64,000 nt of DNA from an uncultured Patescibacteria group bacterium. GTDB lineage: Bacteria; Patescibacteriota; Microgenomatia; UBA10105; UBA927. The translations under genes and the position numbers were made by a program. Location of the stretch: assembly GCA_937921305.1 (NCBI GenBank), contig CAKZSU010000006.1, positions 1,089 through 65,088 of the forward strand, read 5' to 3'. Below are positions 22,032 through 61,270 of the stretch, piece by piece; positions within the stretch are counted from its first letter, which is position 1, and every line of letters starts with the position of its first letter. The notes beneath the pieces were generated by a model, which searched no databases, was not told the origin of the DNA, and saw nothing but the letters and a program-made list of their open reading frames with translations.

Positions 22032-22064
22032 GAGGTTATTGTACTATAATGTGTCTCATACCGC
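22032..22064. promoter_or_regulatory. 33-bp divergent intergenic region with a TATAAT-like element. This is the strand-switch point of the locus.
   Basis: This is the only non-coding DNA between the start of 20793-22031 (-) and the start of 22065-23666 (+). The sequence aggttattgtactataatgtgtctcataccgc contains 'tactataat'. Confidence 0.4.
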
Positions 22065-23666
22065 ATGAAAAAAAGCCTTAATATTCTGATTATTCTTATT
22101 GTTCTTTCTTCGCTTCCGTTTATTCACATGTTTGTATCGCCTGACTTACCACACACAAGCGACGGAGAAGTGCAAATCCCTCGAATGGCTGCGTTTTATA
22201 AAGCGATTCGAGACGGACACATTCCTGTTCGATGGGCTGGAGATTTAAATTATGGCTATGGCATGCCGTTGTTTACTTTCATCTATCATACGCCGTTTTA
22301 TGTTTCTTCTTTTCTAATCGCTCTTGGCATCCCTCTTGTTTCTGTGTTTAAACTCACTCTTTATTTCAGTTTTCTATTATCTTGCATATTCATGTTTTTA
22401 TTCGCAAAGACATTTTTTAAGAGAGAGAAGATAGCATTCCTTGTCACGCTTCTATATCAATTCGCTCCGTATCATCTCGTTGATGTGCTAATCCGCGGAG
22501 CTATTGGAACAATCTATGTGTATGCTTTTTTCCCTCTTGTCCTCTGGGGATGTTTACGAGCGAACATTCCAATTGTCACAATTTCCCTCTCTCTTATGAT
22601 TCTTTCTCATAATTCTATGGCGCTTGTTTTCTTCTTTATTACTATTGGATTTCTCTTATTATTTGCTGAAAACAAACGAAAGGCGATTCTTGGCATATCT
22701 CTTGGGCTTGGTCTCGCTTCTTTTTATTGGATTCCAGCGCTTATTGAACATAAATATACCTATGGAGATCTCTTTATGAAGGATCTTTTTCGGGTGAACT
22801 TTCCTCAGTTTCATCACTTTTTCATTCCGAACCTATTTAACGATCCGCACCTTCGCGTTTCTGAGATTGTTGTTCACTGGGGAATAGCACACACACTTCT
22901 AACAGTTCTTGCTATCATCTTTTGGAGGTCATTGCCATCAACAATGAAAATTATGTCGATATTTTGTTATGCAATCATCATTATTTCAATTTTCTTCATG
23001 CATCCTCTATCAACGCCACTATGGGAACGCGTATCGTATCTTCGACAATTTCAATTTCCGTGGAGATTCTTGTCGGTCATCGTATTCGCCACAGCAATGC
23101 TCGGAGGAATAGTCATCCATCGATATTTACCAAGAAAACCATATCTTTTTATTATTCTCGCACTTATGATCGTGTTGCCGACAATGCACTATTGGAAACC
23201 AACACAAGGATATGATCAAATTCAAGATGAACAAGTATTTTGGAATTATCCATTGAATACCACATACTTTGGCGAAACAGATGTGATATGGTCAGCCGGA
23301 CCAGCAACTGCGTATCCTAAGTCCCGAGTACAAATCATAGAAGGAGAAGGAAGAATTCATAATTTCAGAAAAATAAATCACAAACAAACATTTTCTGTTA
23401 AATCGACAACAAGCGCTCGCATAGTCAGCCACACGCAGTACTTTCCCGGATGGAGAGTTTACATAAACGGTGAAAAAACCTCCATTCAATTTCAAGATCC
23501 GAATTGGCGAGGACTAATAACATTTTTTGTTCCTGAAGGAACACATGCTGTTCGCATACAATTTGAAGAAACTCCGATACGATTACTAGCAAATCTTATA
23601 TCTGTGGGATCCATAATTATATTGATAAGTTTTCTCATTAGAAAACATTTATGCAAACGCGCATAA
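22065..23666 (+). CDS. Family-B GT-C-like membrane protein
   Basis: TSDGEVQIPRMAAFYKAIRDGHIPVRWAGDLNYGYGMPLFTFIYHTPFY. The C-terminus has YFPGWRVYINGEKTSIQFQDPNWRGLITFFVPEGTHAVRIQFEET. Confidence 0.55.
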   Translation: MKKSLNILIILIVLSSLPFIHMFVSPDLPHTSDGEVQIPRMAAFYKAIRDGHIPVRWAGDLNYGYGMPLFTFIYHTPFYVSSFLIALGIPLVSVFKLTLYFSFLLSCIFMFLFAKTFFKREKIAFLVTLLYQFAPYHLVDVLIRGAIGTIYVYAFFPLVLWGCLRANIPIVTISLSLMILSHNSMALVFFFITIGFLLLFAENKRKAILGISLGLGLASFYWIPALIEHKYTYGDLFMKDLFRVNFPQFHHFFIPNLFNDPHLRVSEIVVHWGIAHTLLTVLAIIFWRSLPSTMKIMSIFCYAIIIISIFFMHPLSTPLWERVSYLRQFQFPWRFLSVIVFATAMLGGIVIHRYLPRKPYLFIILALMIVLPTMHYWKPTQGYDQIQDEQVFWNYPLNTTYFGETDVIWSAGPATAYPKSRVQIIEGEGRIHNFRKINHKQTFSVKSTTSARIVSHTQYFPGWRVYINGEKTSIQFQDPNWRGLITFFVPEGTHAVRIQFEETPIRLLANLISVGSIIILISFLIRKHLCKRA

Positions 23667-25864
23667 CAAAAATTTTTCCATTTCTCATTCTTGCTGGAAT
23701 AACCTGCGTATTTTTTTATAAAACATTGATCTTCCGACTTCTTCCTTTTCCCGGAGACCTTCTCGTCTCCGAGTATCAACCATGGAGATCATACTCATTT
23801 CTTGGATACAATCCAGGCAGTTACCCTAGCAAAAAACAATACTTTGATACAATCCGTCAGATCTACCCATGGAGAACATTTGTCAATCAAGAGTTAAAAC
23901 AAGGAAGAATTCCGCTGTGGAATCCTCATAATTTTTCAGGACATCCATTATTGGCAAATCTTCAATCTCAAGTTTTCTATCCTTTTACAGTTTTATACTT
24001 TATATTCTCTCAACCGATGGCATGGACCATCCTCGTCATGCTTCAACCATTCTTGGCAATGATTGGCATGTTTCTGTATCTTCGATCAATTCATCGATCA
24101 ATATACGCAAGTCTTATTTGCTCTCTTTCGTACGGATTCAGTCACTATATGACGGTGTTTCTTGAATACAATACGATTGGACATGTCATTCTTTGGATTC
24201 CTTTTATCCTTTATTCGATAGAAAAAATACATGAAACAAAAAAAACGATATTTAAGACGCTGCTTGTTTTTTCAATCGCGTCAAGCGCTGTTGCTGGACA
24301 TCTTCAAATATTTGGAGGAATCGCCATATTTGCAATCCTTTATGCTCTTGTAATAAAGAAACCCGTTGCGCTTGATATCATAATACTGCTCATTATTGGC
24401 ATGGGCATCGCTGGAATCCAACTCATTCCAACAATTGAATTGCTCTATCACTCAGCAAGGGTAAATCACCCATATGAAGACTTTGTCACAAGATTGCTGA
24501 TTCAACCGAAACAATTACTCACATTTATCAATCCAGATCTCTTTGGAAATCCAGCGACAGAGAATTATCTTCTTCACGATTCCTATCCGGGAAAAGCGTT
24601 GTTTGTTGGTTTCTTAATATTCTTTTTCAGTGTGTTAAGTTCTATAAGTAAAAAGAAAACACCATGGGAACGCTTTTTTCTTTTCCTCTCTATAATACTT
24701 CTATTTCTTTTAACAAGAAATCCGATCACGGAATTGCTTTATCGCGTTCCAATTCCGCTCGTATTACAGAGCGGTCCTGGAAATTTTATTATTTTTATTA
24801 CATTCACTCTTACGACTCTCGCCTCCTTTGGCATCGACAAATGGATGAAGCATGCTAAAACCAACATCGCCTATGGTATCATTCTCGGATTAATTAGTAT
24901 CATCTTTATAGGAGCGCTCACAAACAGCACCCCTCACATTCGATCAATGGTTATTTTTTCTCTTCTCTCCTTTTCTTTTCTTTCTATCCTTCTCTTCGTA
25001 TCAAAATTTATTAGAAAGAAAGTTTTACTATACGCTACTTTTCTATTCACCGCTTTTGAGCTCTTTTATTTCTTTCATAAATTCAATCCATTTGTTCCAG
25101 TATCGCTTATCTATCCCGAAACTCCACTTGTTTCATTTCTTAAACAACAACGATCAATTGGAAGACTTTATGGATACGGTCATGGTGCGATCGAAGCAAA
25201 TTTCGCAACACAACTTGGATTATATGATCCAAACGGATATGACCCGCTATATCCAAAATCATACGGCATATTTATTTATGGAGAAAAAAACAAACCATTT
25301 GCGTTTAATCAATCAACACGATCAGACGCGACAATCATTCCGGGATTTGGCGATGAGCCTTTTGACAGCAATAAAAAAAGAAAAGAGCTTATTGACGGGC
25401 TAGGTGTAGAATATATCATTAGCGGAAAAGAAAATAATGCGACAGAAAGAACATTTCCTCCATCAGAATATCCAATTGTGTATCAGGATGATGTATTTAT
25501 TGTTTACAAAAATATGACCGCTCAACCAAGACTGTCATTTTCATCGCCAGACAATCAAGGAACAACGAATATCCTTTTATACAAATCAACAGTTGTTGAA
25601 CTAGAAGTTTCATCACCAATTCGTCAACATCTCATCCTGTCAGACACCTATATGCCGGGATGGAAAGCCTTTGTTAATGGGGAAAAAGTTCCATTTGTTC
25701 AATCCTCGCATCCATTTCGAGAAATTGAAATTCCAGAAGGCAAACATATTGTAAAATTTGAATACGCCCCATTATCATTTATCGTTGGAATTGGAATCTC
25801 ATCCGCAAGCATTACTTTTTTTATTTTTTTCATTAATTCCAAAAAGAGAAAGATTGTTTCATAA
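23651..25864 (+). CDS. YfhO-family membrane glycosyltransferase-like protein
   Basis: 737 aa. ...IPLWNPHNFSGHPLLANLQSQVFYPF... in the N-terminal region, about 13 TM helices, then a soluble C-terminal domain ending DTYMPGWKAFVNGEKVPFVQSSHPFREIEIPEGKHIVKFEYAP, as in B. subtilis YfhO-type proteins. Confidence 0.6.
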   Translation: MQTRITKIFPFLILAGITCVFFYKTLIFRLLPFPGDLLVSEYQPWRSYSFLGYNPGSYPSKKQYFDTIRQIYPWRTFVNQELKQGRIPLWNPHNFSGHPLLANLQSQVFYPFTVLYFIFSQPMAWTILVMLQPFLAMIGMFLYLRSIHRSIYASLICSLSYGFSHYMTVFLEYNTIGHVILWIPFILYSIEKIHETKKTIFKTLLVFSIASSAVAGHLQIFGGIAIFAILYALVIKKPVALDIIILLIIGMGIAGIQLIPTIELLYHSARVNHPYEDFVTRLLIQPKQLLTFINPDLFGNPATENYLLHDSYPGKALFVGFLIFFFSVLSSISKKKTPWERFFLFLSIILLFLLTRNPITELLYRVPIPLVLQSGPGNFIIFITFTLTTLASFGIDKWMKHAKTNIAYGIILGLISIIFIGALTNSTPHIRSMVIFSLLSFSFLSILLFVSKFIRKKVLLYATFLFTAFELFYFFHKFNPFVPVSLIYPETPLVSFLKQQRSIGRLYGYGHGAIEANFATQLGLYDPNGYDPLYPKSYGIFIYGEKNKPFAFNQSTRSDATIIPGFGDEPFDSNKKRKELIDGLGVEYIISGKENNATERTFPPSEYPIVYQDDVFIVYKNMTAQPRLSFSSPDNQGTTNILLYKSTVVELEVSSPIRQHLILSDTYMPGWKAFVNGEKVPFVQSSHPFREIEIPEGKHIVKFEYAPLSFIVGIGISSASITFFIFFINSKKRKIVS

Positions 25865-25870
25865 AAAACT

Positions 25871-27550
25871 ATGAAATATAAATATAATATTATTCTCTTC
25901 CTGATTATCCTTTTTGGTTCATTTATACGATTGTATCGAATTGATAGCATTCCTAATGGTCTTCAACAAGACGAGCTTTCTATTGGTTATAACGCATACT
26001 CTATTCTCAAAACTGGGAAAGACGAACATGGAAAAATCATGCCACTCCAATTCATTGCGTTCGGCGAATATAAACTGCCAGTATCCATCTACGCAACTGT
26101 ACCATTTATTTATATATTTGGTTTAAACGAAATAGCAGTTCGTCTTCCATTTGGGATATTCGGCATCGCCACTATCATTGTTTTTACTCTAATCATTAGA
26201 GATGTATTTTTAGAGAATCACAATAGAAATATAGCAATGATCATCGGCGCGTTTCTTCTTGCAACAAATCCATGGCATATATTCTTCTCTCGAGCCGCTT
26301 TTGAAGTAACTATCGCGCTGTTTTTTCTTTCTCTTTGTCTTTTATTATTGTTTTTCTATCTTCGAAAAAAACAGAATATTATTCTTTACGCTTCAATCGT
26401 CTCAGGAATGTTTGCTTTTTATACCTATAACACCATGCGATTAATCATTCCGCTGTTATTGATCTCATTGCTTTACACCATAAGAAACAATAAAAAACAC
26501 GTGTGGATGTCAATAATTATCATTTTCCTTTTTGCTATCCCATTTTTAGTGACAATATCAGATTCAACATCCGCAGTTTCCGGAACGCTTATTCACTCAA
26601 GCGCGAGAATTCAAGCTGAATTAATTGAGACGCGAAGTTATATGGTAAACATTCATCCATTCATTCAAAAAATATTTTTTTCTATACCACTGCAAACTGT
26701 CGTTGTTTTTATAAAAAACATCCTAAACAATATAAACGCTTCGTTTTATCTCCTCCATGGTCCTTTTCATGGAAATCATGGCATAGGGACGCACGGATTA
26801 TTTTTCATCTATCAATTACCACTATTTCTCATAGGTATCGTTTTTTACTTAAAGAATAAAACCATACAAACAACTCTTTTGCTTCTTGTCATGTTTTTCA
26901 CAATTATTGCAACCGCCATAACAAGAGAAAGTCCGTACGGCACAAGAAGTTTTTTCATGGTGCCAGCAATTCTTGTTATAACAACCATAGGGGTCTTACA
27001 TGTTTGGAGATGGATGGTAAAAAGAAACGTTACTATGAAATGCTTCATAATCGGAACAGTTTCTTTCTCAATCCTATATGAAGGAACTACCTATGCACTA
27101 AGCTATGCACAACGATTCCCGCAAGCATATGCAAAAGAATGGAGGTCTGCAGATAAAGCATTAATTGCGTACCTTCAAGAAAAAAACGATGAATACGATC
27201 GAATTGTCATCGACCCAGAAGCAAATCTTCTTTATATTTCATACTTATTCTATTCAAAAATAGATCCGAATGAATTCATTAATTCTGTCGAAAAAGAGAA
27301 ACCAGACAATGAGGGATTCATAAATGTAAAAAAATTTATCAATGTGGAATATCGATCGATTCATTGGGAGGAAGATCTAAAGAAGAAACGCACAATTTTT
27401 ATAACTCGACCAGAAAAAAAACCAGAGACAGCGCAAAAATTTAAAACTTTTTATTATCCAAAAAGACCTGTTGCCATAGCAAAAAAACAAGAAATTATTC
27501 AATATCCTTTTCAGGATATCGCGTATGTTGTCATATCATCGCTTGAATAA
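25871..27550 (+). CDS. Family-A GT-C glycosyltransferase (PMT/ArnT-like)
   Basis: QQDELSIGYNAYSILKTGKDEHGKIMPLQFIAFGEYKLP. Confidence 0.6.
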   Translation: MKYKYNIILFLIILFGSFIRLYRIDSIPNGLQQDELSIGYNAYSILKTGKDEHGKIMPLQFIAFGEYKLPVSIYATVPFIYIFGLNEIAVRLPFGIFGIATIIVFTLIIRDVFLENHNRNIAMIIGAFLLATNPWHIFFSRAAFEVTIALFFLSLCLLLLFFYLRKKQNIILYASIVSGMFAFYTYNTMRLIIPLLLISLLYTIRNNKKHVWMSIIIIFLFAIPFLVTISDSTSAVSGTLIHSSARIQAELIETRSYMVNIHPFIQKIFFSIPLQTVVVFIKNILNNINASFYLLHGPFHGNHGIGTHGLFFIYQLPLFLIGIVFYLKNKTIQTTLLLLVMFFTIIATAITRESPYGTRSFFMVPAILVITTIGVLHVWRWMVKRNVTMKCFIIGTVSFSILYEGTTYALSYAQRFPQAYAKEWRSADKALIAYLQEKNDEYDRIVIDPEANLLYISYLFYSKIDPNEFINSVEKEKPDNEGFINVKKFINVEYRSIHWEEDLKKKRTIFITRPEKKPETAQKFKTFYYPKRPVAIAKKQEIIQYPFQDIAYVVISSLE

Positions 27551-29153
27551 ATCTCTCTTGATCATTCTCTTTCTCTTTTTTGTTCATCTTGTCTTTCTTC
27601 ATCATTTTTTTAGACAAGGAGTTCCAGAAACACATGATGGAGATCTTCATATGGCAAGATTTGCCACATATAAAAAAGCGTTTATCGATTTTCATATTCC
27701 TCCGCGATGGGCTAAAGATTTAAATTATACTTATGGTTTGCCGGAACTTAATTTCTTCTATCCCGTATCAGGGTATATCGCTACAATGCTTTCATTATTA
27801 GGAGTATCATATGAAGTGATTTTTAAACTCCTTCTAAGCATCTCTTTTCTTATAGCGCCAATAGGTATGTTTTTTTTCCTGTCATTGTTAAGTTCTCGAA
27901 TCAACGCAATTCTTGGAGCGTTTCTCTTTGGATTAGCACCATACCAATTTCTAAACATGTATGTTCGAGGAGCATTGGGAGAAATACTTTCGATTTCGAT
28001 TGTTCCGTTTGCTTTATATTTCTTAACCATGGGAATTCAAAAGAAAGCATTACATTTATTTATTCTTGGAGGTATTATATCTTCTCTTATTATTCTGACG
28101 CACCATGGCGTAGGACTCATGACATTTCCATTTTTTATAGCATTTTTATGCTTCATGATATGGAAATATAAAACGCCTTTTAGTTATATGTTAATGTATT
28201 TTATTCTTACTCTTGGAATCTCAGCGTTCTTCTGGATTCCGGCATTTTTTGAATCGAAATATACACATGCAGCTCTTTTCTTTGGAAATATATATAAAGA
28301 ACATTTTATCTCTCCGCTTGAAATGATTCTAAAATCATGGGGATTTGCTCCAAATCCGAATGAACCAGATGGACAATCGCCTCAAATAGGATTAGTTGGA
28401 GCTATTATTTTAATAATAAGCATAGTTTCTCTAATAAAGAGAAAACAATTATGTTCGCTAACACTATTAATAGTATTGACTTTGTTTATCTGTTATTTTC
28501 TACCTCTCTCTATTTCAAGTCCAGTATGGGAAAACATTAAAATATTAAAACTCTATCAATTTCCATGGAGATTTATAGGATTGGCAAGCATACTGTTGCC
28601 AATATTCGTTAGCTTATCAAATATCACAAAGAAACCAATAATTTTATTTTTTCTTATCTTATCACTCGTGGCACAAGCATTCTTGTATATTCCACAAAAG
28701 AATATTATTCACAGAGAAAATAATTGGTATGAAAATTTTCAGTCGACAACAGCTGTTCATGGAGAATCGACACCAATATGGACAGATGGATTAAAGTCAT
28801 CCTATCCAAAACAATATATAGAAATCATTGAAGGAGTCGCTTCAGGAGAGCTTACTCAAAGGAAAACGCAACAGATTGAAACAATCATAAACGCGCAAAC
28901 CGATGCGAATATTCGCTTCAACACATTATACTATCCCGGATGGAAAGCATACATAAATAATCAAGAAACACCAATAGAATTTCAAGATCCAAATCATAAA
29001 GGCATCATTACGGTTAGAGTTCCGAAGGGTCTCCATACCGTTGTTCTTCAATTTGAAGAAACAAAACTCCGAATGGTAGCAAATATAATAACAATTGGCA
29101 GTGTCATGTTTGCGATAGGTTCTTTCCTATGGATAAGAAAACGTTATTCATGA
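27525..29153 (+). CDS. Family-B GT-C-like membrane protein
   Basis: THDGDLHMARFATYKKAFIDFHIPPRWAKDLNYTYGLPELNFFYPVSGY. The C-terminus has LYYPGWKAYINNQETPIEFQDPNHKGIITVRVPKGLHTVVLQFEET. Confidence 0.55.
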   Translation: MLSYHRLNKSLLIILFLFFVHLVFLHHFFRQGVPETHDGDLHMARFATYKKAFIDFHIPPRWAKDLNYTYGLPELNFFYPVSGYIATMLSLLGVSYEVIFKLLLSISFLIAPIGMFFFLSLLSSRINAILGAFLFGLAPYQFLNMYVRGALGEILSISIVPFALYFLTMGIQKKALHLFILGGIISSLIILTHHGVGLMTFPFFIAFLCFMIWKYKTPFSYMLMYFILTLGISAFFWIPAFFESKYTHAALFFGNIYKEHFISPLEMILKSWGFAPNPNEPDGQSPQIGLVGAIILIISIVSLIKRKQLCSLTLLIVLTLFICYFLPLSISSPVWENIKILKLYQFPWRFIGLASILLPIFVSLSNITKKPIILFFLILSLVAQAFLYIPQKNIIHRENNWYENFQSTTAVHGESTPIWTDGLKSSYPKQYIEIIEGVASGELTQRKTQQIETIINAQTDANIRFNTLYYPGWKAYINNQETPIEFQDPNHKGIITVRVPKGLHTVVLQFEETKLRMVANIITIGSVMFAIGSFLWIRKRYS

Positions 29154-30838
29154 TTGTCATCATTACTTGTTTTGGAGCCTTACTGCGATTCTATAAGCTT
29201 GGAATCGTTCCTGACGGTTTTCATAGGGACGAAGCGTTTCTTGGCTATAACGCATATTCGTTATTAAAAACAGGAAAAGATATGTCTGGAAAACTCCTCC
29301 CCTTACATTTCGAATCATTTATTTATAGTCCAGGAGGATATAGCTACGCTAGCATACCATTTATCGCGATCTTTAGACTTGATGAATTTTCTACTCGATT
29401 CGCGTCGGCGTTTTTTGGAACACTGACAATTCCGTTATTATTTCTCTTAGCGTACAAACTATTTCCAAAAACACCACGTATTGGAATTCTGGGATCCTTT
29501 ATTCTCGTCATAACTCCTTGGCACATTAATCTTTCAAGAACCGCCACAGAAAACATTCTTGTTACATTTTTTCTTTTGCTCGGAATATATTTTTTATTTG
29601 TATGGAAAGACCATCAAAACAAACTTCTATTTCTTTTGCTTGGATTTATCTCAATCTCTCTTACGCTCGTTATATATCAAGCGCCAAGAGCATTTCTTCC
29701 TATGTTTATTCCATTTATGTTTAGTATCTTGTTCTTCGATAAAAAACGTTCTATATTTCTTCCATTAGTTTTGTATAGTATTTTCATACTTCTTCCTGTT
29801 GGATTAGTTTTAAGCAACTCTCATCTCTCAACAAGAATGAAAACTGTTAGTATTTGGAGCACAGAAAAAACATCGCTTATAATTCAAGAACAAATAAGAG
29901 AAGATGGCGTAAGAAATATTCATCCTCTTGTTTCTAGAATAACCCACAATAAAATTATCGGATATACGGAAGAATTTTTAAGAAATTACTTTCTTCATTT
30001 CTCCTACGATTTTCTCTTTACTGACAGAGGAATGCCAGACAGATATAGAATCCCGCATGCCGGACTTCTGTATATATCCATGATTCCTCTCGTGCTTTCA
30101 GGAATTTATTACCTCATGACGGAGAAAAAAAGGATCGGATGGTTTCTGATCGGCTGGATAAGTATCGGCATTATTGGAAGCGCATTAACATTTGATGATA
30201 TTCCAAATCTGCAACGAACCGTTTTTATCGTTCCAGCGGTTTCTCTAATCATAAGCGTTGGAACATATTCATTACTTGGCATACGATCAAACATTCTTAG
30301 AATTGCCACAACGGGGATCTTTCTTTTCGCTTTCTTTTTTGAAGGATATCGCTATCTTCATCATTATTATGTCCAACAAATCGTTCATCGTCCATGGTAT
30401 AGACAGGAAGGATACCGAGAATTAGTTCAATTCATTCAGAAAATTGAACATAAATACAACAATATCGTTATTACAAATAGAGAATCGGCGCCGACTATCT
30501 TTTTTCTCTTTTATACAAAATACGATCCAAAGCAATTTCAAGAAGAAACAAAATATTCCACATTTAGAGATTTTGATAGAATATCATTTTATAAATATAT
30601 TTTTTCAGAAGAAGAATGCCCATTGAAAGAAGTGTCCTATCAAAGCGAGAAGAATCCGAACATCATAGTAACGAATTGCTATGGAGAAAAAAATTCGCTT
30701 TATGTAAATTCTGGTCTGTGCAAAGAACCAAAAGTGTGTGCCAATATACTCCGCACTGTTCGAAGAAATGATGGAACGAATGCATTTTTTATCTTAGAAC
30801 CAACAGGTGTTACTTCTACTTCAACGTCTCTTCAATAA
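29129..30838 (+). CDS. Family-A GT-C glycosyltransferase (PMT/ArnT-like)
   Basis: HRDEAFLGYNAYSLLKTGKDMSGKLLPLHFESF. This is the last gene of the plus-strand block. It overlaps the convergent GT2 gene by 18 bp. Confidence 0.55.
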   Translation: MDKKTLFMIVIITCFGALLRFYKLGIVPDGFHRDEAFLGYNAYSLLKTGKDMSGKLLPLHFESFIYSPGGYSYASIPFIAIFRLDEFSTRFASAFFGTLTIPLLFLLAYKLFPKTPRIGILGSFILVITPWHINLSRTATENILVTFFLLLGIYFLFVWKDHQNKLLFLLLGFISISLTLVIYQAPRAFLPMFIPFMFSILFFDKKRSIFLPLVLYSIFILLPVGLVLSNSHLSTRMKTVSIWSTEKTSLIIQEQIREDGVRNIHPLVSRITHNKIIGYTEEFLRNYFLHFSYDFLFTDRGMPDRYRIPHAGLLYISMIPLVLSGIYYLMTEKKRIGWFLIGWISIGIIGSALTFDDIPNLQRTVFIVPAVSLIISVGTYSLLGIRSNILRIATTGIFLFAFFFEGYRYLHHYYVQQIVHRPWYRQEGYRELVQFIQKIEHKYNNIVITNRESAPTIFFLFYTKYDPKQFQEETKYSTFRDFDRISFYKYIFSEEECPLKEVSYQSEKNPNIIVTNCYGEKNSLYVNSGLCKEPKVCANILRTVRRNDGTNAFFILEPTGVTSTSTSLQ

Positions 30839-31738: not shown

Positions 31739-33989
31739 ACCTCAATTCTAGTCTATGTTCTCCATCTGGAATGACAATGCCCATAAACGCGCCGTTGGTC
31801 TGATATATTTTCACAGATGTTCCATCAACATATGCTTTCCACTGCGGCGTATATTGCGTTCCTATCACAAAAAATCGATGAAATATCGCTCGTGTTTCAA
31901 TAACAGCTCGAGCATCTTCATATGTTTCTATACGAACATATTCTGACGAATCAAGCGGGTACGATTGAATATCAAGATTTCCTAATACAACAGCTTCTTG
32001 ATGTGGATTGATCTGAAATAATGTTTGAAACATTGAGGAATACTCTGATTTTGAAATCACCCGAGAAACAAAGAAAAATCTTGATAAAACAGAAGATCGT
32101 TCATAAAGATATGTCTGTCCTTCATTCATAATAAACTTTATATCTTCACGATCAGTCATTGGCCCATATGATAGAACATATTTAATGTTTAACAAATTAA
32201 AAAGTGGATGATCCACATATGACGGATGAATCATACGATTGAATCTATACGGTCGCTCCAACAGTCCATTTCCTCTTTGAATAGATGCTATGAAATCTTC
32301 ATAATGTTTTGTGTACAAAGGATCGTATCCCGAAACCATCTCTATGCCGTAATACGCAGCGACATTTGATGAAAGAATACGATCATCCAAAGAGATAACT
32401 CTGAACGGCTTTTCTTGCCGTTGCAAATAAGTAATAATTTTTGTTGAAGGGAAAAAATAAGACACATCGGTAAATGGCGTAAATTTTCTGCCGAAACGAA
32501 ACAGATCAAAAAAAACAATCAAAAGAAGCAATATTCCAACAAGAACCAAAGGTATTTTTTTTCTTAATAAGAAAATACCGCCACCTATAAAAAGGAGCAT
32601 CGTTGGAAGAATACTGTTGCGAAACGCGATTCGCATATACTCAACCATGTCTTCTTCTCCATGGCGAAACAACATCCACGATATGAATGCAATCGACGCG
32701 ACACATGCGAATACCATCCCCCACAAAACGTTAAATCTTCTCATATTTTCTTGGTTTGTTTCTAAAAATCTTTGAAATCCATACGCAGAAAAAATAGAAA
32801 GAATAAAAACAATAAGAACTAATAAACGCGTTGGTTGAAGAGAAGAAAGAAGAGGAATAGAGTATTCATATGGCAATTTCGCGATAGATGTGGGTAAAAT
32901 AAAAAGGAAACTCAAACAAAGGATAAACAAAAAAAGCTTCTTTTCTCGAAATGAACTATATAAAATTCCTCCAATTGAAAATACTACTGAAACTATTCCT
33001 ATATACCCCACAAGTTCTCCGTAATTCCATGTTCCCCAATAATTCATCGTTGCCGGATTCCCAAAGAAATCTGGAATCAAAAATTGAAGAAGATGTTTCC
33101 ATGGAACAAACCATCCTTCTTTTAACATCACATCGTGTTCGATAACTCTACTAGACTGAACGACAATCGAATAAAATTCTTTCCATTGAATGGAAGTAAT
33201 ACTAAAAAAAACTGGCAATGCGAGAAAAAACCTACGTATTCTCTTCTTCGCGATGACGTAGAAACACAAAAAAATAAACACATACAAAAATATCTGCGCA
33301 TGACCTGCGAGAAATGAACATGACATAACGACACCTAATGTAATTCCATTGAATATTCTACTTTTACTTCGATCAATAAAAAAAAGCATCAATGGCAACC
33401 ATAAAGCGGTATGAACCATTGTTCCCCATGTGAGCCACGCAATGGAAAATCCAGAAAACGCCCATGCTATACTTCCCAAAAGACATGCAAAAGGATGCAA
33501 TTTTTTTGATGAAAGATAGATATAAAGAAATACGCCAGCAAGAGTTGGTTGAAGTATTATAAGCAAAGACCATGCAATTGGAAATGAAAAAATAAAAAAT
33601 AATGCATTCAGCGGATATAACGCTCCTGCTTGAATATTCCCAAGTAATGGACTTCCGCTAAACGCATAAGGATTCCAAAGGGGAAGTTTACCTTCTTTCA
33701 GCGAATCGATGGCAATCTTCCTCCACGGAATCTGTTGACGAATGGGATCGGTAATTAAAAAATTCTTAAATGGAATACCTCGAGGATATTCCTCTGCGTA
33801 AAGATCTCTCCACGGATGATACATGCCAACCAATGTGTCCGATGGTACAGGCAATTTGCCTTGAAAAAAGAATGGGGCAAAAAATAAGAAAACAAATAGG
33901 AGAAAAAACAAGATACCGATGCATTGTTTCATATATTTATTTCGATTAAACCTATTGAATCTCATATAAGACGCAACATTCTTTATCAA
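31728..33989 (-). CDS. YfhO-family membrane glycosyltransferase-like protein
   Basis: 753 aa. ...LPLWNPYAFSGSPLLGNIQAGALYPLNALFFIF... The C-terminus has QYTPQWKAYVDGTSVKIYQTNGAFMGIVIPDGEHRLELRYEL. Confidence 0.6.
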   Translation of the reverse strand: MIKNVASYMRFNRFNRNKYMKQCIGILFFLLFVFLFFAPFFFQGKLPVPSDTLVGMYHPWRDLYAEEYPRGIPFKNFLITDPIRQQIPWRKIAIDSLKEGKLPLWNPYAFSGSPLLGNIQAGALYPLNALFFIFSFPIAWSLLIILQPTLAGVFLYIYLSSKKLHPFACLLGSIAWAFSGFSIAWLTWGTMVHTALWLPLMLFFIDRSKSRIFNGITLGVVMSCSFLAGHAQIFLYVFIFLCFYVIAKKRIRRFFLALPVFFSITSIQWKEFYSIVVQSSRVIEHDVMLKEGWFVPWKHLLQFLIPDFFGNPATMNYWGTWNYGELVGYIGIVSVVFSIGGILYSSFREKKLFLFILCLSFLFILPTSIAKLPYEYSIPLLSSLQPTRLLVLIVFILSIFSAYGFQRFLETNQENMRRFNVLWGMVFACVASIAFISWMLFRHGEEDMVEYMRIAFRNSILPTMLLFIGGGIFLLRKKIPLVLVGILLLLIVFFDLFRFGRKFTPFTDVSYFFPSTKIITYLQRQEKPFRVISLDDRILSSNVAAYYGIEMVSGYDPLYTKHYEDFIASIQRGNGLLERPYRFNRMIHPSYVDHPLFNLLNIKYVLSYGPMTDREDIKFIMNEGQTYLYERSSVLSRFFFVSRVISKSEYSSMFQTLFQINPHQEAVVLGNLDIQSYPLDSSEYVRIETYEDARAVIETRAIFHRFFVIGTQYTPQWKAYVDGTSVKIYQTNGAFMGIVIPDGEHRLELRYEL

Positions 33990-34141
33990 TCAAAGGTTTT
34001 AATTATTTTTCTTTTAAGAAGATATTTTTCAGAAGATTTTCTTAGCATAATATGCGTTACCCCCTGCTCCTTAAGATATTGAACATCGTTTATCATTTCT
34101 CTTCTTTTCATTTCTTCCTTTTTTGCTTCTTCGCTATTTAA

Positions 34142-35848
34142 TTATGATAAAACATATATTGGTCTATGTATCATATAGGAAAGATATAATTGTCCATAAT
34201 CAAAAGGATATCCAATCGGCAAGATGAGAGCATTCTTAGACAATACGTTTTGTGCATCGTTATAAAACTCAGCCTCGTGATGTGTGATAAAGGTATAGGA
34301 TAATTTCGCTATATTTTCATAGGTGACATATAAGGTTCTTGGAAGAGTAATCGAAATAATAAATAGCGATAAAAGACTAGATACAATAGGAGGAAATCGA
34401 TGAAATACATACGTCATCGCCAATGACGCGAAAATACTCATCAATATAACCGTTGTAATTAAAAAATTTACCGATGTTGATCCCCCGACCTTCTGCAAAT
34501 AAAACATCCAGACAAAAAAACTGCTTATCATCGAAAAAAGAAAAAAGAGAAGAAGCGAAAGAGAAAGGATGCGAAGAGATACTCTTGTTTGTATGATTCC
34601 AATGATTTTTGATCCGTATGTCACAACCACAAAAATACAAAACATCATACTATCTAAAAACCATACGCGTGGCATGTTGTGATGTTGCATAAACACTTCT
34701 CTCGTAAGTAACCAATGAGAAACTCCCAATTCTGGCATAGCAAAAAAATCATGAACTCTCCATAAACCGCTAAAAAAGAATCCACCAGATTCCCCTTTGA
34801 CTTTTGGCATAAATAAAACGATGCTTATCAAGACAGTCGCCACAGCATAAGCCATTAATTGCATATCTCTTTTAAACAATGAATAAAGAAAAACGCCAAC
34901 CATCCCAGCCCAAACAAAAATACCCGTATACGCTTTATAATGAATAAGAGAAGCGAATATAAATACTCCCGCAATAAAAAGAAGAAATCTTCTTTCTTTA
35001 ATACAAAATATAAGAAACGATAAACCAGTAAATAATCCAACGATTGAAAACGCCCGCGGATAATTAAACAAAAATCCAGCGCCACTCTCCATAGCGGCAA
35101 AATAAAACATAAACTGAGTATTTAATAAAAGAACAAATAAAAATACCGCGTCAGCCCCAAAGTAAAGGAAAAATAACAGACACCGTAAATATGTTTTATT
35201 CGCGTTTATTGCCTTCGCAAACACATACGCGGATAACCCCAAAGATATGGACAATACGATAGAAAAAAATTGATATGTTGTCGTGACAAGAGGAAGACGA
35301 AATATCCTGACAAATTCCACAATAACTAAATGACTAAGATAATGATAATCGTATAATTCTACGCCAAATAATCCCGGTTCATGTGGAGGAAATCGTTGTG
35401 TTAGTTCATGAGTAATAGCCAAAAAAAGAATATTATCAGGCACATGACCACAACATCCTATAACGCCGCGTGATGTAAGAATTCCCATGAACCACACGCC
35501 GAGCACCTGCGTTATCACGCCAAACAACATAATCAAAAGAGCAACAATATCCACTGAACGGAATAATCGAGAAATAGTAAGTTTCTGTTTTGTAAACAGA
35601 AACCATGCAAGAAAAAATATCAAATATACAACTATTCCAGATCGGATATGCAATCTTCCAAAGATATAGGAAGCCGCTCCCCAAAGAAACATTCCTGTTA
35701 AAAACGACAACACATGAAAAACATGCTGATTTTGAATGTTTTCTATATGACGAAGAAAAAATCTCCCGGGAATATAAAACGCAAAAACCATCGCAAAGAG
35801 AAAGATAAAAAGATGTATAAAGAACTCGATAGTGAATGTTGTAGCCAT
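34142..35848 (-). CDS. Large polytopic membrane protein, orphan (possible GT-C-like or O-antigen-ligase-like; family not recognised)
   Basis: 568 aa with at least 14 predicted TM helices and no obvious large soluble domain. No DE, HDG or YfhO motifs. Confidence 0.35.
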   Translation of the reverse strand: MATTFTIEFFIHLFIFLFAMVFAFYIPGRFFLRHIENIQNQHVFHVLSFLTGMFLWGAASYIFGRLHIRSGIVVYLIFFLAWFLFTKQKLTISRLFRSVDIVALLIMLFGVITQVLGVWFMGILTSRGVIGCCGHVPDNILFLAITHELTQRFPPHEPGLFGVELYDYHYLSHLVIVEFVRIFRLPLVTTTYQFFSIVLSISLGLSAYVFAKAINANKTYLRCLLFFLYFGADAVFLFVLLLNTQFMFYFAAMESGAGFLFNYPRAFSIVGLFTGLSFLIFCIKERRFLLFIAGVFIFASLIHYKAYTGIFVWAGMVGVFLYSLFKRDMQLMAYAVATVLISIVLFMPKVKGESGGFFFSGLWRVHDFFAMPELGVSHWLLTREVFMQHHNMPRVWFLDSMMFCIFVVVTYGSKIIGIIQTRVSLRILSLSLLLFFLFSMISSFFVWMFYLQKVGGSTSVNFLITTVILMSIFASLAMTYVFHRFPPIVSSLLSLFIISITLPRTLYVTYENIAKLSYTFITHHEAEFYNDAQNVLSKNALILPIGYPFDYGQLYLSYMIHRPIYVLS

Positions 35849-35851
35849 GTG

Positions 35852-36877
35852 TTAAAGAAAAATTCTATCCAATGTTTGATAAAAAATACTTGTATCAAAT
35901 TGTTTTGCCCTATTTATCGTTTTTTTTCTCACTAATGTTGCCTTTTTCTGATCTTTGATTAACGATAGTGTTCTCTCTGTCAATTCCTCTTTTGACTTCC
36001 AAAACATCCCAGAGATTCCGTGTTCCACAATCTCTTTCTGACCACCCGCAGGATAGACAAGAGGAATAGCTCCTGACGCCATCGCTTCAACTGTCGAAAT
36101 GCCAAAATGCTCAACACACTCCGGATGGTTCGATTCATCCTCGCCATATCCAGTCGCATGCCAGTAGACCATTGCTTCTCCATATAAATCTAATAAGGTA
36201 TCTCTTGAGATGTTAATCAACAATTCAATCGGGTATCCGTGAATCATTCGCCGAATTCTTTGTTCTTCATCTTTGTCAGCGTCTAATATCCCACCAGCAA
36301 GAATAAGTTTCCATTCCTTCAATCCATCATCAACCATCCGTTGAAACGCTTGAATCAATATTTCTTGTTTTTTTGCATTCATGCCTTTTGTCAATCTTCC
36401 AACAGAGAGAATAATTTTCTCTTTTTTCTTCTCTTTATAATCGTCTATATGAATTGATGGATATACGACATGGGCGTTCGCAAAAAATGTTTTATCGATG
36501 AATTTCTTCGTGAATTCTGAATTAACAATTATGTCAGCAATTCGCAAACGTTTAAGCAAAGTTATTGGAGAAAAAAGACGCACCCATGGAACAGGAAACT
36601 GAAAAATACAATATGTTTTCTTTGCAAAAGAAAAGGGCAAGCTGCCATCGCTATAAAACAACAAAACATCTAATCCGCGAGAGTCGAATACATCTCTCGT
36701 TTCAAGATGAGACAATGATATACCAAACCGTTCTTCGGCAAGAGATACTTCGCCAGGATTATTCGTAAAGTACAAAACTGAATGATTCTTTTTCAAAAAA
36801 TATGACGCAAAAGTGAACATGTACTGTTCTCCTCCGCCCAATGTATCATGATATGGATTATAGATTCCGACGATCAT
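35852..36877 (-). CDS. Glycosyltransferase family 4
   Basis: ...VEHFGISTVEAMASGAIPLVYPAGGQKEIV... E-x7-E motif. 341 aa. Confidence 0.75.
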   Translation of the reverse strand: MIVGIYNPYHDTLGGGEQYMFTFASYFLKKNHSVLYFTNNPGEVSLAEERFGISLSHLETRDVFDSRGLDVLLFYSDGSLPFSFAKKTYCIFQFPVPWVRLFSPITLLKRLRIADIIVNSEFTKKFIDKTFFANAHVVYPSIHIDDYKEKKKEKIILSVGRLTKGMNAKKQEILIQAFQRMVDDGLKEWKLILAGGILDADKDEEQRIRRMIHGYPIELLINISRDTLLDLYGEAMVYWHATGYGEDESNHPECVEHFGISTVEAMASGAIPLVYPAGGQKEIVEHGISGMFWKSKEELTERTLSLIKDQKKATLVRKKTINRAKQFDTSIFYQTLDRIFL

Positions 36878-39161
36878 AAAAATATCTTCTTAATGACTCA
36901 AATAAAAGCACCACACATGTGAATCCAGAAATCCAAACGCCAATCATAAACAATCGAGGTTGATAATACAAATCGACAATCGATATTCCTTCTGGAATCG
37001 CCACGGCTCTAAACGCGTGATTGGCGCGGAGCACCTTTGACTCTTTTTCATTTACTTTTACTTTCCATCCAGGATCAAATACCTCTGAAAGAAACAGTAT
37101 CCGCGGAGTATCTGTTGTCGCTTTGATTCGGACACTGTTTGGTCGATATGAAATGACTTCAACATTTCCGACTTCTCCTTTTTTCGGCTCGATAGAAGGA
37201 TCTTCTTCCAAAACCACAAGACCTCTCTCAACCCGATTTGCGAGGAATGATAGTATCTTGTTTTTATCTGATAAGATAACATAGTCATGAAACAACGCAA
37301 ATCGAGGAGAAGGAGTTACATCTTTAAGAATTTCATAGTGTTCATCTTCGTATACAGATACATAGTCAGGATATTCCCAATGAGGAAATGTCCATATATG
37401 TCGTCCATCGCTCTTTCTATAAAGAACCCAATTCACGCCAAGAATATCAAACCATGTTTTTGTATAAACGCCGTGCTTATCGATGCGAACGACAGATCGC
37501 TCCAATGGTTCAATAGTTCCTTTTGACGCAGCAGAGATAAACTCTCCATATCGCTTTTGATACATCGCGTCATAACCTTCAATAAAGGGGATATGCGCAT
37601 GCATCGCAAGTTCATTGCCAAATGTTCCGAATGCTCGATCATTTCCGATTTCTTTTTGAAGATATGAAATGAGTGGAATTGAAGGATACACATAGTCTCT
37701 TGGATCAAATGGCATCCACTTGAGAGAAAATCGAAGGAGATCAAACGAAACGCATAGAAGAAAAACAATTATTATTGCTTTTCTTATTCTTCGGAATTTC
37801 CTTCCAAGGATGAGACATCCTACAAATACAATAGACAACACTGTTGGAAGAGTCATATTTCGTTTCACAATTTGCATATACTGTTCTTGAATGTGAAAAA
37901 AGAAAAGAATATATACCCAAGCAATTCCCAAAAAGAATACGATGAAAAGAGAAAAACTTTGTATTCTCAAAGATCCCTTCTTTTGCCAATCTTCTTTCAA
38001 TTGATCAAATCCAAACGATGAAAGAACGATAAGCGAAAAACTAAACAATACAATCATTCTTGTCGCCACACTTGTTGAGATGATAGAAATCTTCATCGCG
38101 TACAATAACGCATTCAACGGCGAAGCAAAAGAGACTAACAAACTCATAATCGCCATCACGAGAAATACGATCTTTCCTTTCTTTTTTGAGAATATAGCTC
38201 CGTATATCGCAAGAAATAAGGGAATGACGCCGATATAACTCGCCCACTCGGCGTATTGACCAAACCAATCATTCCTTGTCACAGGATTTCCATATACATC
38301 AGGAGCAAAAAGCGTAAGAATATAGCTCCACGGAATCGAACCAGTGGTAAAACTTTCTCCTCGATTTGATTGCAGATATGCATGAAGTGTTGTCAACACC
38401 TGCACGCTTGATAGCAACATTCCGAGAAATACAAAAAGGAATAACGCTCCTTTTTTCTTTGTATACCCGAGGATAAATAGCATTAACGCTCCCACCACAT
38501 ACATGCTTATTTGATAATGACCAGAAAGAAATGAAAACGCGATACTCAACGCAATAAGAACGCCATATCTCCAACGAGATGATTCTTCGTACAAAACAAC
38601 ACCAAATAATGCAAGTGGAAACACAACGATCGCCCACCCCAATGTTCCATATGCCATCCAAACTGTCATAAATCCAAAAAACATAAAACTTACGGTTCCA
38701 AGCAACGATGAAATAGTTGACACTTTAATTGCCCGTAAAAATAAAAACATGCAGAATCCCGCGCATAGTGGTTGCAGAAGCACATGAAGACTCCATGCGT
38801 CAATAAATGGAAAAACAAAAAACAGAATATTAATAGGAGAAAACACTGCTGATTGATAATTGCCTGCGTGGGGAGTTCCCGAGAATAGGTACGGATTCCA
38901 CAATGGAACTTCTCCAGATTTCCATGTGTCTATTGTTAGTTTTTTCCACGGAAATATCTGAGTAATAACATCCGGCATCGCGTTATTCTTTACCGGCATG
39001 CCATAATATGCGTTCCACGGAGGGAAAAACGACACAAGATATGTTGATGGAAATGGAACGCTTCCATGAAGAAAATATTGAGAAGAAAAAATAAACCAAA
39101 TAACAACAATAAAACAATATGGCAAAATTTTTACAATAACTGACGATGTTGTTTTTCCCAT
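36858..39161 (-). CDS. YfhO-family membrane glycosyltransferase-like protein
   Basis: 767 aa. ...VPLWNPYLFSGTPHAGNYQSAVFSPINILFFVFPF... The C-terminus has VFDPGWKVKVNEKESKVLRANHAFRAVAIPEGISIVDLYY. Confidence 0.6.
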   Translation of the reverse strand: MGKTTSSVIVKILPYCFIVVIWFIFSSQYFLHGSVPFPSTYLVSFFPPWNAYYGMPVKNNAMPDVITQIFPWKKLTIDTWKSGEVPLWNPYLFSGTPHAGNYQSAVFSPINILFFVFPFIDAWSLHVLLQPLCAGFCMFLFLRAIKVSTISSLLGTVSFMFFGFMTVWMAYGTLGWAIVVFPLALFGVVLYEESSRWRYGVLIALSIAFSFLSGHYQISMYVVGALMLFILGYTKKKGALFLFVFLGMLLSSVQVLTTLHAYLQSNRGESFTTGSIPWSYILTLFAPDVYGNPVTRNDWFGQYAEWASYIGVIPLFLAIYGAIFSKKKGKIVFLVMAIMSLLVSFASPLNALLYAMKISIISTSVATRMIVLFSFSLIVLSSFGFDQLKEDWQKKGSLRIQSFSLFIVFFLGIAWVYILFFFHIQEQYMQIVKRNMTLPTVLSIVFVGCLILGRKFRRIRKAIIIVFLLCVSFDLLRFSLKWMPFDPRDYVYPSIPLISYLQKEIGNDRAFGTFGNELAMHAHIPFIEGYDAMYQKRYGEFISAASKGTIEPLERSVVRIDKHGVYTKTWFDILGVNWVLYRKSDGRHIWTFPHWEYPDYVSVYEDEHYEILKDVTPSPRFALFHDYVILSDKNKILSFLANRVERGLVVLEEDPSIEPKKGEVGNVEVISYRPNSVRIKATTDTPRILFLSEVFDPGWKVKVNEKESKVLRANHAFRAVAIPEGISIVDLYYQPRLFMIGVWISGFTCVVLLFESLRRYFYDRRNL

Positions 39162-39871: not shown

Positions 39872-39881
39872 ACGAGCTTTG

Positions 39882-53357: not shown

Positions 53358-53390
53358 ACGAAGAGCGGGTAAACCGCATAAATCATTCTG

Positions 53391-54350: not shown

Positions 54351-54390
54351 AGTCCTCCTTCTTATAAATCATTATAAACGATATTGTATA

Positions 54391-61219: not shown

Positions 61220-61270
61220 CCTATATTTTTTTAATAGGGGTATTATATAGAGAAGAATTATTTTTGTCAA

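Follow-up and report, generated by a model that had tools for sequence, protein, structure and literature searches.

We analysed a stretch of 64,000 nucleotides from an uncultured Patescibacteria group bacterium (GenBank assembly GCA_937921305.1, contig CAKZSU010000006.1), referred to below as the window. It contains three genes for large membrane proteins of the YfhO family, here called A, B and C (Table 1), and sequence comparisons indicate that these represent three anciently diverged orthogroups of YfhO-family glycosyltransferases of the GT-C class. The trio is a slice of a much larger feature. In the reading that we favour on balance, A, B and C would be extracytoplasmic transferases, each contributing its own sugar or linkage to a glycopolymer of the envelope whose core is made by interleaved soluble GT2 and GT4 enzymes. 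The trio is a conserved component of a locus of about 58 kb, whose product, in the same reading, would be a glycan of the cell envelope. Bacteria of the Candidate Phyla Radiation (CPR, or Patescibacteria) spend their lives attached to other cells, which probably gives their surface a central place in their biology. A co-inherited YfhO trio in a conserved operon provides a concrete parts list for a CPR surface-glycan pathway, namely a candidate lipid-sugar synthase, a flippase and three predicted outside-acting transferases with defined conserved and type-specific residues.

Three YfhO-family genes and their orthogroups

The open reading frames (ORFs) of A, B and C were found at exactly the coordinates given in an earlier note on this DNA, which had assigned them to the YfhO family of glycosyltransferases. 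The assignment was borne out by a Pfam scan, in which all three proteins exceeded the gathering score of the hidden Markov model (HMM) PF09586 (28.5 bits; 835 columns), with E values of 5e-21 for A, 7e-19 for C and 5e-9 for B. The match to B was limited to the C-terminal stretch 707-751, and full-length BLASTP alignments link B to A and C. Pairwise, the three proteins align over their full length, and so across the whole YfhO core, at 29-33% identity (BLASTP E values of 2.6e-92 for A/C, 2.0e-92 for B/C and 1.5e-81 for A/B), a similarity far beyond chance. The same Pfam scan gave no match of A, B or C to rival families (Wzy, O-antigen ligase and others), and identity as an O-antigen polymerase or ligase was rejected for want of an HMM match to either. 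Such proteins are already named 'YfhO family protein' by the NCBI annotation pipeline, and an identical protein A is present on metagenome contigs from NCBI, ENA and Logan.

The motifs by which the three genes had been linked occur in all three proteins, with small deviations from the wording of the note. The N-terminal motif is IPLWNPHNFSGHPLLANLQSQVFYP in A, LPLWNPYAFSGSPLLGNIQAGALYP in B and VPLWNPYLFSGTPHAGNYQSAVFSP in C; B has NIQA, with QA in place of QS, and C has VPLWNP, with V in place of I or L. The C-terminal motif is YMPGWKAFVNG in A, YTPQWKAYVDG in B (Q for G) and FDPGWKVKVNE in C. In the public annotation the gene for C (P0121, 706 aa) begins about 60 codons after the start of the ORF. 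As C orthologues with lengths of 751-790 aa span 98-100% of the longer version, the public call is probably truncated and lacks the first membrane helix and some of the first loop.

For each query the top 120 homologue clusters were taken, 360 in total, and compared with A, B and C. All 120 B hits and all 120 C hits scored best against their own query, as did 119 of the 120 A hits, the single exception (P0117) scoring best against C. The clusters listed comprise at least 119 of A-type, at least 120 of B-type and at least 120 of C-type. Median identity within types was 40% (A), 45% (B) and 48% (C), compared with 27-31% between types. All named homologues among the listed hits were from the 'Patescibacteria group', Candidatus Levybacteria, Gottesmanbacteria, Parcubacteria or the Microgenomates group, and a scan of GTDB species genomes returned one locus, in a Candidatus Woesebacteria metagenome-assembled genome (52% identity). 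The host is of Microgenomates type and close to the Woese-, Levy- and Gottesmanbacteria. Judged from these sequences, the YfhO triplication is older than the divergence of these candidate phyla, and the family extends well past the Firmicutes, where it has been studied so far.

The neighbourhood of the trio was compared with five further CPR contigs: L002 (Joint Genome Institute metagenome), L004 (Logan), L005 (Levybacteria, GCA_016182185.1), L008 (GCA_040960095.1, 1.07 Mb) and L009 (Gottesmanbacteria, GCA_016194575.1). Three copies in one locus had been called unusual; in this lineage the arrangement is instead the rule, with one-to-one orthologues in the same order in L002, L004, L008 and L009 and a rearranged version in L005. 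The orthologues of A, B and C in other genomes are 44-58% identical to them and occupy the same positions. Comparison of the hit tables by hand found 27 same-size contigs common to the top-120 lists of B and C, and nine common to those of A and B, which suggests that co-location of YfhO types is widespread.

A fourth YfhO type was seen inside the same locus of L008 (L008:14027-16504, 825 aa), next to a methyltransferase gene. It has 26-29% identity to A, B and C, so that four YfhO orthogroups exist in some Microgenomates.

Three genes of similar length inside 15.5 kb could in principle have arisen by recent duplication in place or through an error of assembly, or be pseudogenes in decay, an explanation to which we give almost no weight. 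The pairwise identity is too low for it, each copy has its own positional orthologues elsewhere, the reading frames are intact with their conserved residues kept, and a 17.6 kb stretch with A and B was independently assembled in a Logan run. Recent duplication and assembly artefact are thus refuted by the independent assembly, the separate orthogroups and the positional orthologues.

Fold, topology and conserved residues

The structure of A alone was modelled with AlphaFold2 from a 44-sequence alignment, and B and C were related to the model through the alignment. The model (pLDDT, the predicted local distance difference test, 91.1; pTM, the predicted template modelling score, 0.92) has about 14 transmembrane (TM) helices. 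It consists of a helical membrane domain to about residue 480, an alpha/beta plus beta-sandwich region at 480-705, the predicted extracytoplasmic domain, and a terminal TM helix at 708-736. Foldseek matched it with probability 1.00 to GT-C_A enzymes, first ArnT (5f15, E 1.8e-6) and then AftD, yeast STT3, PglB, DPY19 and AftA; the beta-sandwich gave small separate matches to accessory domains of glycoside hydrolases. The GT-C fold agrees with the glycosyltransferase nature that the note had proposed. The order of the helices, together with basic residues at both ends of A (MQTRITK... and ...NSKKRKIVS), suggests 14 TM spans with both termini cytoplasmic. In such a topology D36, D66, E172, H217, R270, D296, K477 and D531, and with them the putative active site, would face outside.

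Conservation was scored over 363 sequences, with residues numbered as in A. Fifty-two columns are at least 90% conserved within every type, among them K61, D66, Q70, W74, W90, N91, N103, Q105, H217, Q219, R270, D296, K477, Y530, D531, R627 and W671. The conserved acidic loop residue that is a hallmark of GT-C enzymes is present in all three types as D66 in the first loop, a candidate catalytic residue that is invariant in 44/44 of the aligned sequences and at least 90% conserved in each type of the larger set. Since the 52 columns are kept in every type, the A-, B- and C-types all look catalytically competent.

A further 14 columns are fixed differently in each type, and several of these flank invariant residues; they include 63-65 (before D66), 172-173, 478-479 (after K477) and 532 (after D531). 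The C-type departs most clearly in the loops. At position 36 the near-invariant D, present in A-type proteins and in B, is replaced by K, T or R, being retained in only 7/119 C-type sequences; R at position 69 is replaced by T or S, and E at position 172 by A or G. The types also differ at their C-terminal ends. In A and C the extracytoplasmic domain is followed by a terminal helix, whereas B stops right after the domain, and a terminal TM helix was found in 114/120 A-type and 114/121 C-type proteins but in only 2/120 B-type proteins. The type-fixed columns, the loop changes of the C-type and the missing terminal helix of the B-type argue for distinct specificities and against redundancy.

The surrounding locus and the proposed pathway

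Pfam scanning covered the 51 ORFs of at least 150 aa in the window, with overlapping shadow ORFs excluded. Nearly all genes from 350 to 58299 are glycan-related. About 20 GT-C genes lie within 4297-52257 (48 kb): the three YfhO genes, six short YfhO-like or PTPS_related genes, about nine PMT_2, PMT or GT87-like genes and two probable MptA/B-like genes. The window also encodes 12 GT2 enzymes, three GT4 enzymes and two Wzx-type flippases. For a CPR genome, with its usual size of about 1 Mb, so large a set of glycosyltransferase genes takes up a very large share; 29 such genes have been noted in one complete Microgenomates genome (PMC7143001).

All-versus-all BLASTP sorted the large membrane proteins into three paralog families, YfhO, a short YfhO-like family and a PMT_2/ArnT-like family (Table 1; genes are named below by their first coordinate). 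Part of the short family has weak PTPS_related or YfhO matches. Its members and A have in common a C-terminal PGW beta-sandwich module (BLASTP E 4e-6 to 4e-5), and hhalign related its membrane core to that of YfhO with a probability of 99.4% (E 7e-22). A lenient Pfam scan (E<=5) of six hit-less membrane proteins found nothing; membrane proteins lacking a Pfam hit were assigned by BLASTP paralogy and hhalign, and 48738-49907 by a precomputed MptA_B hit of its orthologue in L005. A hit of this kind is what marks two further polytopic proteins, 11973-13067 and 48738-49907, as probable GT-C enzymes of the MptA/B-like sort.

Two gene blocks recur in the compared contigs. In the first, a short YfhO-like GT-C gene of the 22065 type is followed by A and by PMT-like genes. 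The 22065 gene adjoins the A-type gene in all five contigs, and its product, itself Pfam-negative, matches the PTPS_related/YfhO-positive paralog 14322 (BLASTP E 1e-85). Downstream of A the order is PMT_2-like (25871), PTPS_related-like (27525) and PMT-like (29129), as in L002. The second block consists of a GT-C gene of the 43883 type, a GT2 gene of the 43162 type, a MOP flippase gene, three GT2 genes, C, a GT4 gene, B and a GT2 gene of the 30821 type. Its genes mostly overlap by a few bases in the window, as is typical of one operon. Within it the 30821-type GT2 adjoins B, and the 35852-type GT4 is kept between C and B, in L002, L004, L008 and L009; the 39131-type GT2 lies directly upstream of C in L004, L005, L008 and L009. 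The two further GT2 genes and the flippase keep their positions in L005, L008 and L009, and the 43883 gene has orthologues in the same place in L005 and L008. The C-terminal module of the 43883 protein matches that of A (BLASTP E 2e-5). PMT-like enzymes and a GT-B (GT4) enzyme thus adjoin the trio, as the note had said.

The polytopic protein 34142, between the GT4 gene and B, had no Pfam or NCBIfam match even at E<=5. Of the five contigs compared, only L004 has an orthologue, and none lies between the C and B genes of L002, L008 and L009. The protein might be a further GT-C enzyme, or else a polymerase or a ligase. Scans of 21000-40500 found 55 promoter-like sites, fewer than the 73.9 in shuffled sequence, and 13 terminator-like sites, with 13.0 expected, and are uninformative on operon boundaries.

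The note had proposed to check whether each YfhO gene is paired with a specific DPM1-like GT2, and such a pairing was not what we found. B and C adjoin GT2 genes (30821 and 39131) whose products have no hydrophobic segment or TM helix and are unlike ArnC, GtrB or PgfS, and A adjoins a short YfhO-like GT-C gene, not a GT2 gene. The best NCBIfam models for the 30821 protein are of MftF/EpsD type, with ArnC at only 30 bits, and those for the 39131 protein are arsenosugar/SunS-type models. No GT2 with two C-terminal membrane helices (CsbB/GtrB/GtlA type) adjoins A, B or C. Candidate polyprenyl-phosphate-sugar synthases do occur elsewhere in the window. The clearest is the GT2-GtrA fusion 52233, whose five best NCBIfam matches (ArnC, PgfS, AglJ, PpgS and dolichyl-phosphate hexose transferase) are all polyprenyl-phosphate glycosyltransferases. 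The GT2s 8764-9450, 49910-50662, 43162 and possibly 6722-7588 likewise have such enzymes as all or most of their top matches. The 43162 protein, with PgfS (54.6 bits) and dolichyl-phosphate hexose transferase (45.6 bits) as its top NCBIfam models, is the most conserved of its block, having 69-70% identity to its counterparts in L008 and L009 compared with 36-61% for its neighbours. The only GtrA domain among the scanned ORFs is the fused one of 52233, the operon of C and B having the MOP flippase instead. Since the 43162 gene heads the C/B operon beside this flippase, the three-component logic of synthase, flippase and GT-C transferase is present at the level of the operon and not gene by gene. 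The note's expectation of several donors or acceptors fits the 14 type-fixed columns, some of them beside invariant residues, and the four or five candidate synthases make several donors possible.

In the pathway that we favour, the first step would take place on the cytoplasmic side, where small GT2s would load one sugar onto polyprenyl phosphate; 43162, in the same operon, is the first candidate for it, followed by 8764, 49910 and 52233. The lipid-linked sugar would cross the membrane by means of the MOP flippase 41712 or the fused GtrA domain of 52233. On the outer face each YfhO enzyme, using its first-loop aspartate (D66 in A), would pass the sugar on to a surface glycopolymer, each at a different position or on a different intermediate. 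The interleaved soluble GT2 and GT4 enzymes would build the core of this polymer, and the C-terminal beta-sandwich domain might help to hold the acceptor. The context for this proposal is the PgfS-like GT2, the MOP flippase and the rmlA, rmlB, rmlD, ugd and wecB genes in the window. YfhO enzymes act outside the cell, where C55-P-sugar provides the sugars that they transfer (PMC5836110, PMC8035078), and every characterised member uses a C55-P-monosaccharide donor (PMC8035078); a donor of this kind would be expected here. The acceptors identified for them include lipoteichoic acid (B. subtilis and S. aureus) and wall teichoic acid (L. monocytogenes) (PMC5836110, PMC8035078).

Several observations weigh against this pathway. 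The structural matches of the A model are remote (TM-score 0.4-0.5, about 10% identity), and a search of the PDB with the sequence of A found nothing at E<=1; with the YfhO structure unsolved, the roles given to residues in A, B and C follow by analogy. The chemistry of the C-type may differ, as the near-invariant D36 and R69 are replaced in it. A CsbB-like identity of the GT2s adjoining B and C was rejected, given their lack of TM helices and their best models, and the candidate synthases score far below all NCBIfam equivalog cut-offs (for example 55-117 bits against 325-529), including 55-78 bits for the PgfS matches against a cut-off of 500. The lipid-linked polymer pathway is incomplete as seen in the window, where no priming phosphoglycosyltransferase (WecA/WbaP type) was found. 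A search of the available literature returned no paper linking YfhO, GT-C enzymes or mannosyltransferases with Patescibacteria/CPR.

The acceptor might also be protein. A, B and C could be protein O-glycosyltransferases, like PgtC2 or PgfM1/PgfM2, that move sugars from polyprenyl-phosphate donors onto disordered, Ser/Thr-rich linkers of secreted or sortase-anchored surface proteins, which we regard as possible but the less likely outcome. The YfhO-family enzymes PgtC2 and PgfM1 glycosylate Ser/Thr-rich regions, and the streptococcal pgf operon comprises two YfhO paralogs and the GT2 PgfS (PMC12041528). PgfS is the best or second-best NCBIfam match of 43162 and 49910, and the sole NCBIfam matches of A and C, weak and C-terminal, are to PgfM1/PgfM2. 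These last score only 18-22 bits against cut-offs of 1400-1500, however, so the proteins are not orthologues. The window contains a sortase gene (59554-60123) that overlaps the gene for an Fn3-domain surface protein (60095-61270). The Fn3 protein has a signal peptide, a Ser/Thr/Pro-rich linker with 15 S/T in 30 residues (about aa 201-230) and a sorting-signal-like tail (LGATG, a hydrophobic segment and KFSR), and is a possible O-glycosylation substrate, but it is encoded outside the operon, about 21 kb from the nearest YfhO gene. An operon rich in soluble GT2 and GT4 enzymes and with a MOP flippase also suggests an oligo- or polysaccharide over single-sugar decoration, and a glycan acceptor therefore seems to us the better guess.

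At least one paralog, most plausibly the C-type, might instead act as a ligase, oligosaccharyltransferase or polymerase that transfers an entire oligosaccharide from a lipid-pyrophosphate carrier, or might serve the others as a scaffold without catalysis of its own. The C-type replacements at positions 36, 69 and 172 would suit such a change. So would the position of C directly after three soluble GT2s and a MOP flippase, a Wzx-dependent layout that needs a downstream transferase or polymerase, in a window where Pfam scans gave no Wzy or WaaL family match; the solved structural relatives also include the oligosaccharyltransferases STT3 and PglB. Against this, the C-type retains all 52 common positions, including D66, D296, K477 and D531, which makes lost catalysis unlikely, and neither the monosaccharide donors of the characterised enzymes nor the missing priming enzyme favours an oligosaccharide donor. 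We consider it quite unlikely.

Less probable still is the framing of the earlier note, in which the trio would decorate teichoic acids in the manner of CsbB/GtcA/YfhO. Beyond membership of the family, it could draw on the Gram-positive-like CPR envelope with its sortases (PMC7143001), one of which is encoded in the window, and on a WecB-like epimerase (350-1453) that could supply N-acetylmannosamine, as in the teichoic-acid linkage unit. The 51 scanned ORFs, however, include no TagF/TarF, TagB, TagD or LtaS-type domain and no stand-alone GtcA. No CsbB-type GT2 with two C-terminal membrane helices lies beside a YfhO gene, and the closest relatives, like the host, are Patescibacteria and not Firmicutes. 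Nor are teichoic acids known from CPR bacteria.

A more far-reaching form of our favoured reading is speculative. Microgenomates-type CPR would retain more than 50 kb of conserved sequence for about 20 GT-C enzymes, which fall into three (sometimes four) YfhO orthogroups and the short YfhO-like and PMT/ArnT-like families. These would assemble a complex envelope glycopolymer mostly outside the membrane, with one linkage per enzyme, and the C-type would be re-wired (D36 to K/T/R, R69 to T/S, E172 to A/G) for a donor chemistry unlike that of all characterised YfhO enzymes. Such assembly would be comparable to that of mycobacterial lipoarabinomannan and arabinogalactan and would have evolved independently. 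A new mechanism is not demonstrated by these data, and multiple YfhO paralogs have a precedent in S. mutans.

Other features of the window were also recorded. Its sugar-nucleotide genes are rmlA, rmlB, rmlD, ugd, an SDR (short-chain dehydrogenase/reductase) dehydratase gene and the WecB-like UDP-N-acetylglucosamine 2-epimerase gene; rmlA, rmlB and rmlD lie at 53391-58299, but the ORFs of at least 150 aa include no rmlC. Four adjacent genes at 50659-55689 encode Ugd (TuaD-like, 521 bits), an SDR dehydratase/decarboxylase-like protein, the GT2-GtrA fusion (ArnC/PgfS-like) and a PMT_2 GT-C enzyme, and resemble a module complete in itself, by which a sugar derived from a uronic acid would be added outside the membrane. 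Outside the glycan locus, 62768-63967 has an Apiosidase-like catalytic domain (E 1e-54) and 61462-62775 has a signal peptide and no family match; both (61462-63967) resemble proteins of glycoside-hydrolase type, either secreted or cytoplasmic. GC skew is negative in all 2 kb bins of the window, and AT skew is mostly positive except at 22-30 kb, where genes lie on the + strand. The first 4 kb are AT-richer, at 28-33% GC compared with 33-42% elsewhere. Strong strand-composition disparity is known for one complete Microgenomates genome (PMC7143001).

Table 1. Coordinates, in the window, of the YfhO trio, its neighbours and related glycosyltransferase genes
Feature	Coordinates	Strand	Details
YfhO paralog A, A-type orthogroup	23651-25864	+	737 aa; PF09586 75.2 bits
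YfhO paralog B, B-type orthogroup, no terminal TM helix	31728-33989	-	753 aa; TTG start; PF09586 35.5 bits
YfhO paralog C, C-type orthogroup, altered first loop	36858-39161	-	767 aa; PF09586 68.2 bits
Short YfhO-like GT-C upstream of A	22065-23666	+	533 aa; 16 nt overlap with A; Pfam-negative
Three GT-C genes downstream of A	25871-30838	+	Pfam and BLASTP paralogy
GT2 without TM helix	30821-31738	-	305 aa; PF00535; directly downstream of B, 11 nt overlap
Polytopic membrane protein between GT4 and B	34142-35848	-	568 aa; many hydrophobic segments
GT4 (GT-B fold) glycosyltransferase between C and B	35852-36877	-	PF00534 E 5e-23
GT2 without TM helix	39131-39931	-	266 aa; PF00535; directly upstream of C, 31 nt overlap
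Two more GT2 genes of the C/B operon	39882-40811, 40808-41719	-	Pfam; same order in L005, L008, L009
MOP/Wzx-type flippase	41712-43169	-	PF13440 E 8e-49; NCBIfam 'MOP flippase family' 116 bits
PgfS/dolichyl-phosphate-hexose-transferase-like GT2	43162-43905	-	247 aa; candidate polyprenyl-phosphate-sugar synthase of the C/B operon
PTPS_related/short YfhO-like GT-C heading the operon	43883-45862	-	659 aa; PF10131
GT2 fused to GtrA-like membrane domain	52233-53357	-	PF00535 and PF04138; clearest polyprenyl-phosphate-sugar synthase of the window
Short YfhO-like family, six genes	10420-12045, 14322-15998, 22065-23666, 27525-29153, 43883-45862, 45549-47078		509-659 aa
PMT_2/ArnT-like family, five genes	15913-17559, 17565-19193, 19190-20845, 25871-27550, 29129-30838		about 550 aa
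More distant PMT_2 or GT87-like genes	4297-5691, 20793-22031, 47075-48580, 50659-52257		

Comparison with known systems

The nearest solved structure is that of ArnT, the lipid A aminoarabinose transferase. The GT-C_A fold is alike, as are the first periplasmic loop and juxtamembrane helices bearing conserved acidic residues, and ArnT takes an undecaprenyl-phosphate-sugar donor. The likeness is at the level of fold, with the low identity and TM-scores given above; ArnT lacks the beta-sandwich domain and the terminal helix, and its acceptor is lipid A.

Among the closest characterised systems, and of the same family (PF09586), are the CsbB-GtcA-YfhO systems, which add N-acetylglucosamine to lipoteichoic acid in B. 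subtilis and S. aureus and, as Lmo2550/GtcA/Lmo1079, to wall teichoic acid in L. monocytogenes. The proteins have the same build, a polytopic N-terminal domain, a large extracytoplasmic domain and a last membrane helix (in A and C here), and the operon offers the same logic of GT2 sugar-lipid synthase, flippase and GT-C enzyme. The present proteins, however, are from a different phylum and score low against the HMM, with 35-75 bits over its 835 columns. Their extracytoplasmic domain measures about 225 aa, whereas that of B. subtilis YfhO, between the last two membrane helices, is 389 aa (PMC5836110). The adjoining GT2s have no membrane helices, the flippase is of MOP/Wzx type and not GtcA, and no teichoic-acid genes are nearby. 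Three paralogs and six short relatives occupy one locus here, compared with one gene there.

The streptococcal YfhO O-glycosylation systems (PgfS/PgfM1/PgfE/PgfM2 of S. mutans, and GtrB/PgtC2 of S. pyogenes and S. pneumoniae) likewise have more than one YfhO paralog and a PgfS-like GT2 per operon, and S. mutans, with three YfhO-family genes in total, offers a precedent for the trio. The window, too, has a gene for a Ser/Thr-rich surface protein of sortase type, if at some distance. The Pgf proteins are nevertheless non-orthologous to ours by the equivalog cut-offs already given; the present operon has no PgfE-type 4-epimerase and contains many extra soluble glycosyltransferases and GT-C enzymes.

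The GacI/GacJ/GacK/GacL system, which makes the side chains of streptococcal rhamnose-rich polysaccharide, has rml genes in common with this locus. In both, a cytoplasmic GT2 without a membrane anchor of its own is a possible lipid-sugar synthase, and the Wzx-type flippase and extracytoplasmic GT-C step are alike. GacL, however, is of PMT_2 type and not a YfhO protein, no GacJ-like small partner was identified in the window, and neither rmlC nor a polyrhamnose ABC transporter was seen there.

In overall organization the locus recalls the assembly of lipomannan, lipoarabinomannan and arabinogalactan in mycobacteria and corynebacteria (MptA/B/C, EmbA-C, AftA-D), where many GT-C enzymes act in series outside the membrane and draw on a single polyprenyl-phosphate-sugar donor or on a few. 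The solved folds nearest to that of A include AftD and AftA, and the L005 orthologue of 48738-49907 has an MptA_B-family hit. There is no orthology at the sequence level and the envelope is of a different type; the GT-C genes are scattered in mycobacteria, whereas about 20 are packed into 48 kb here.

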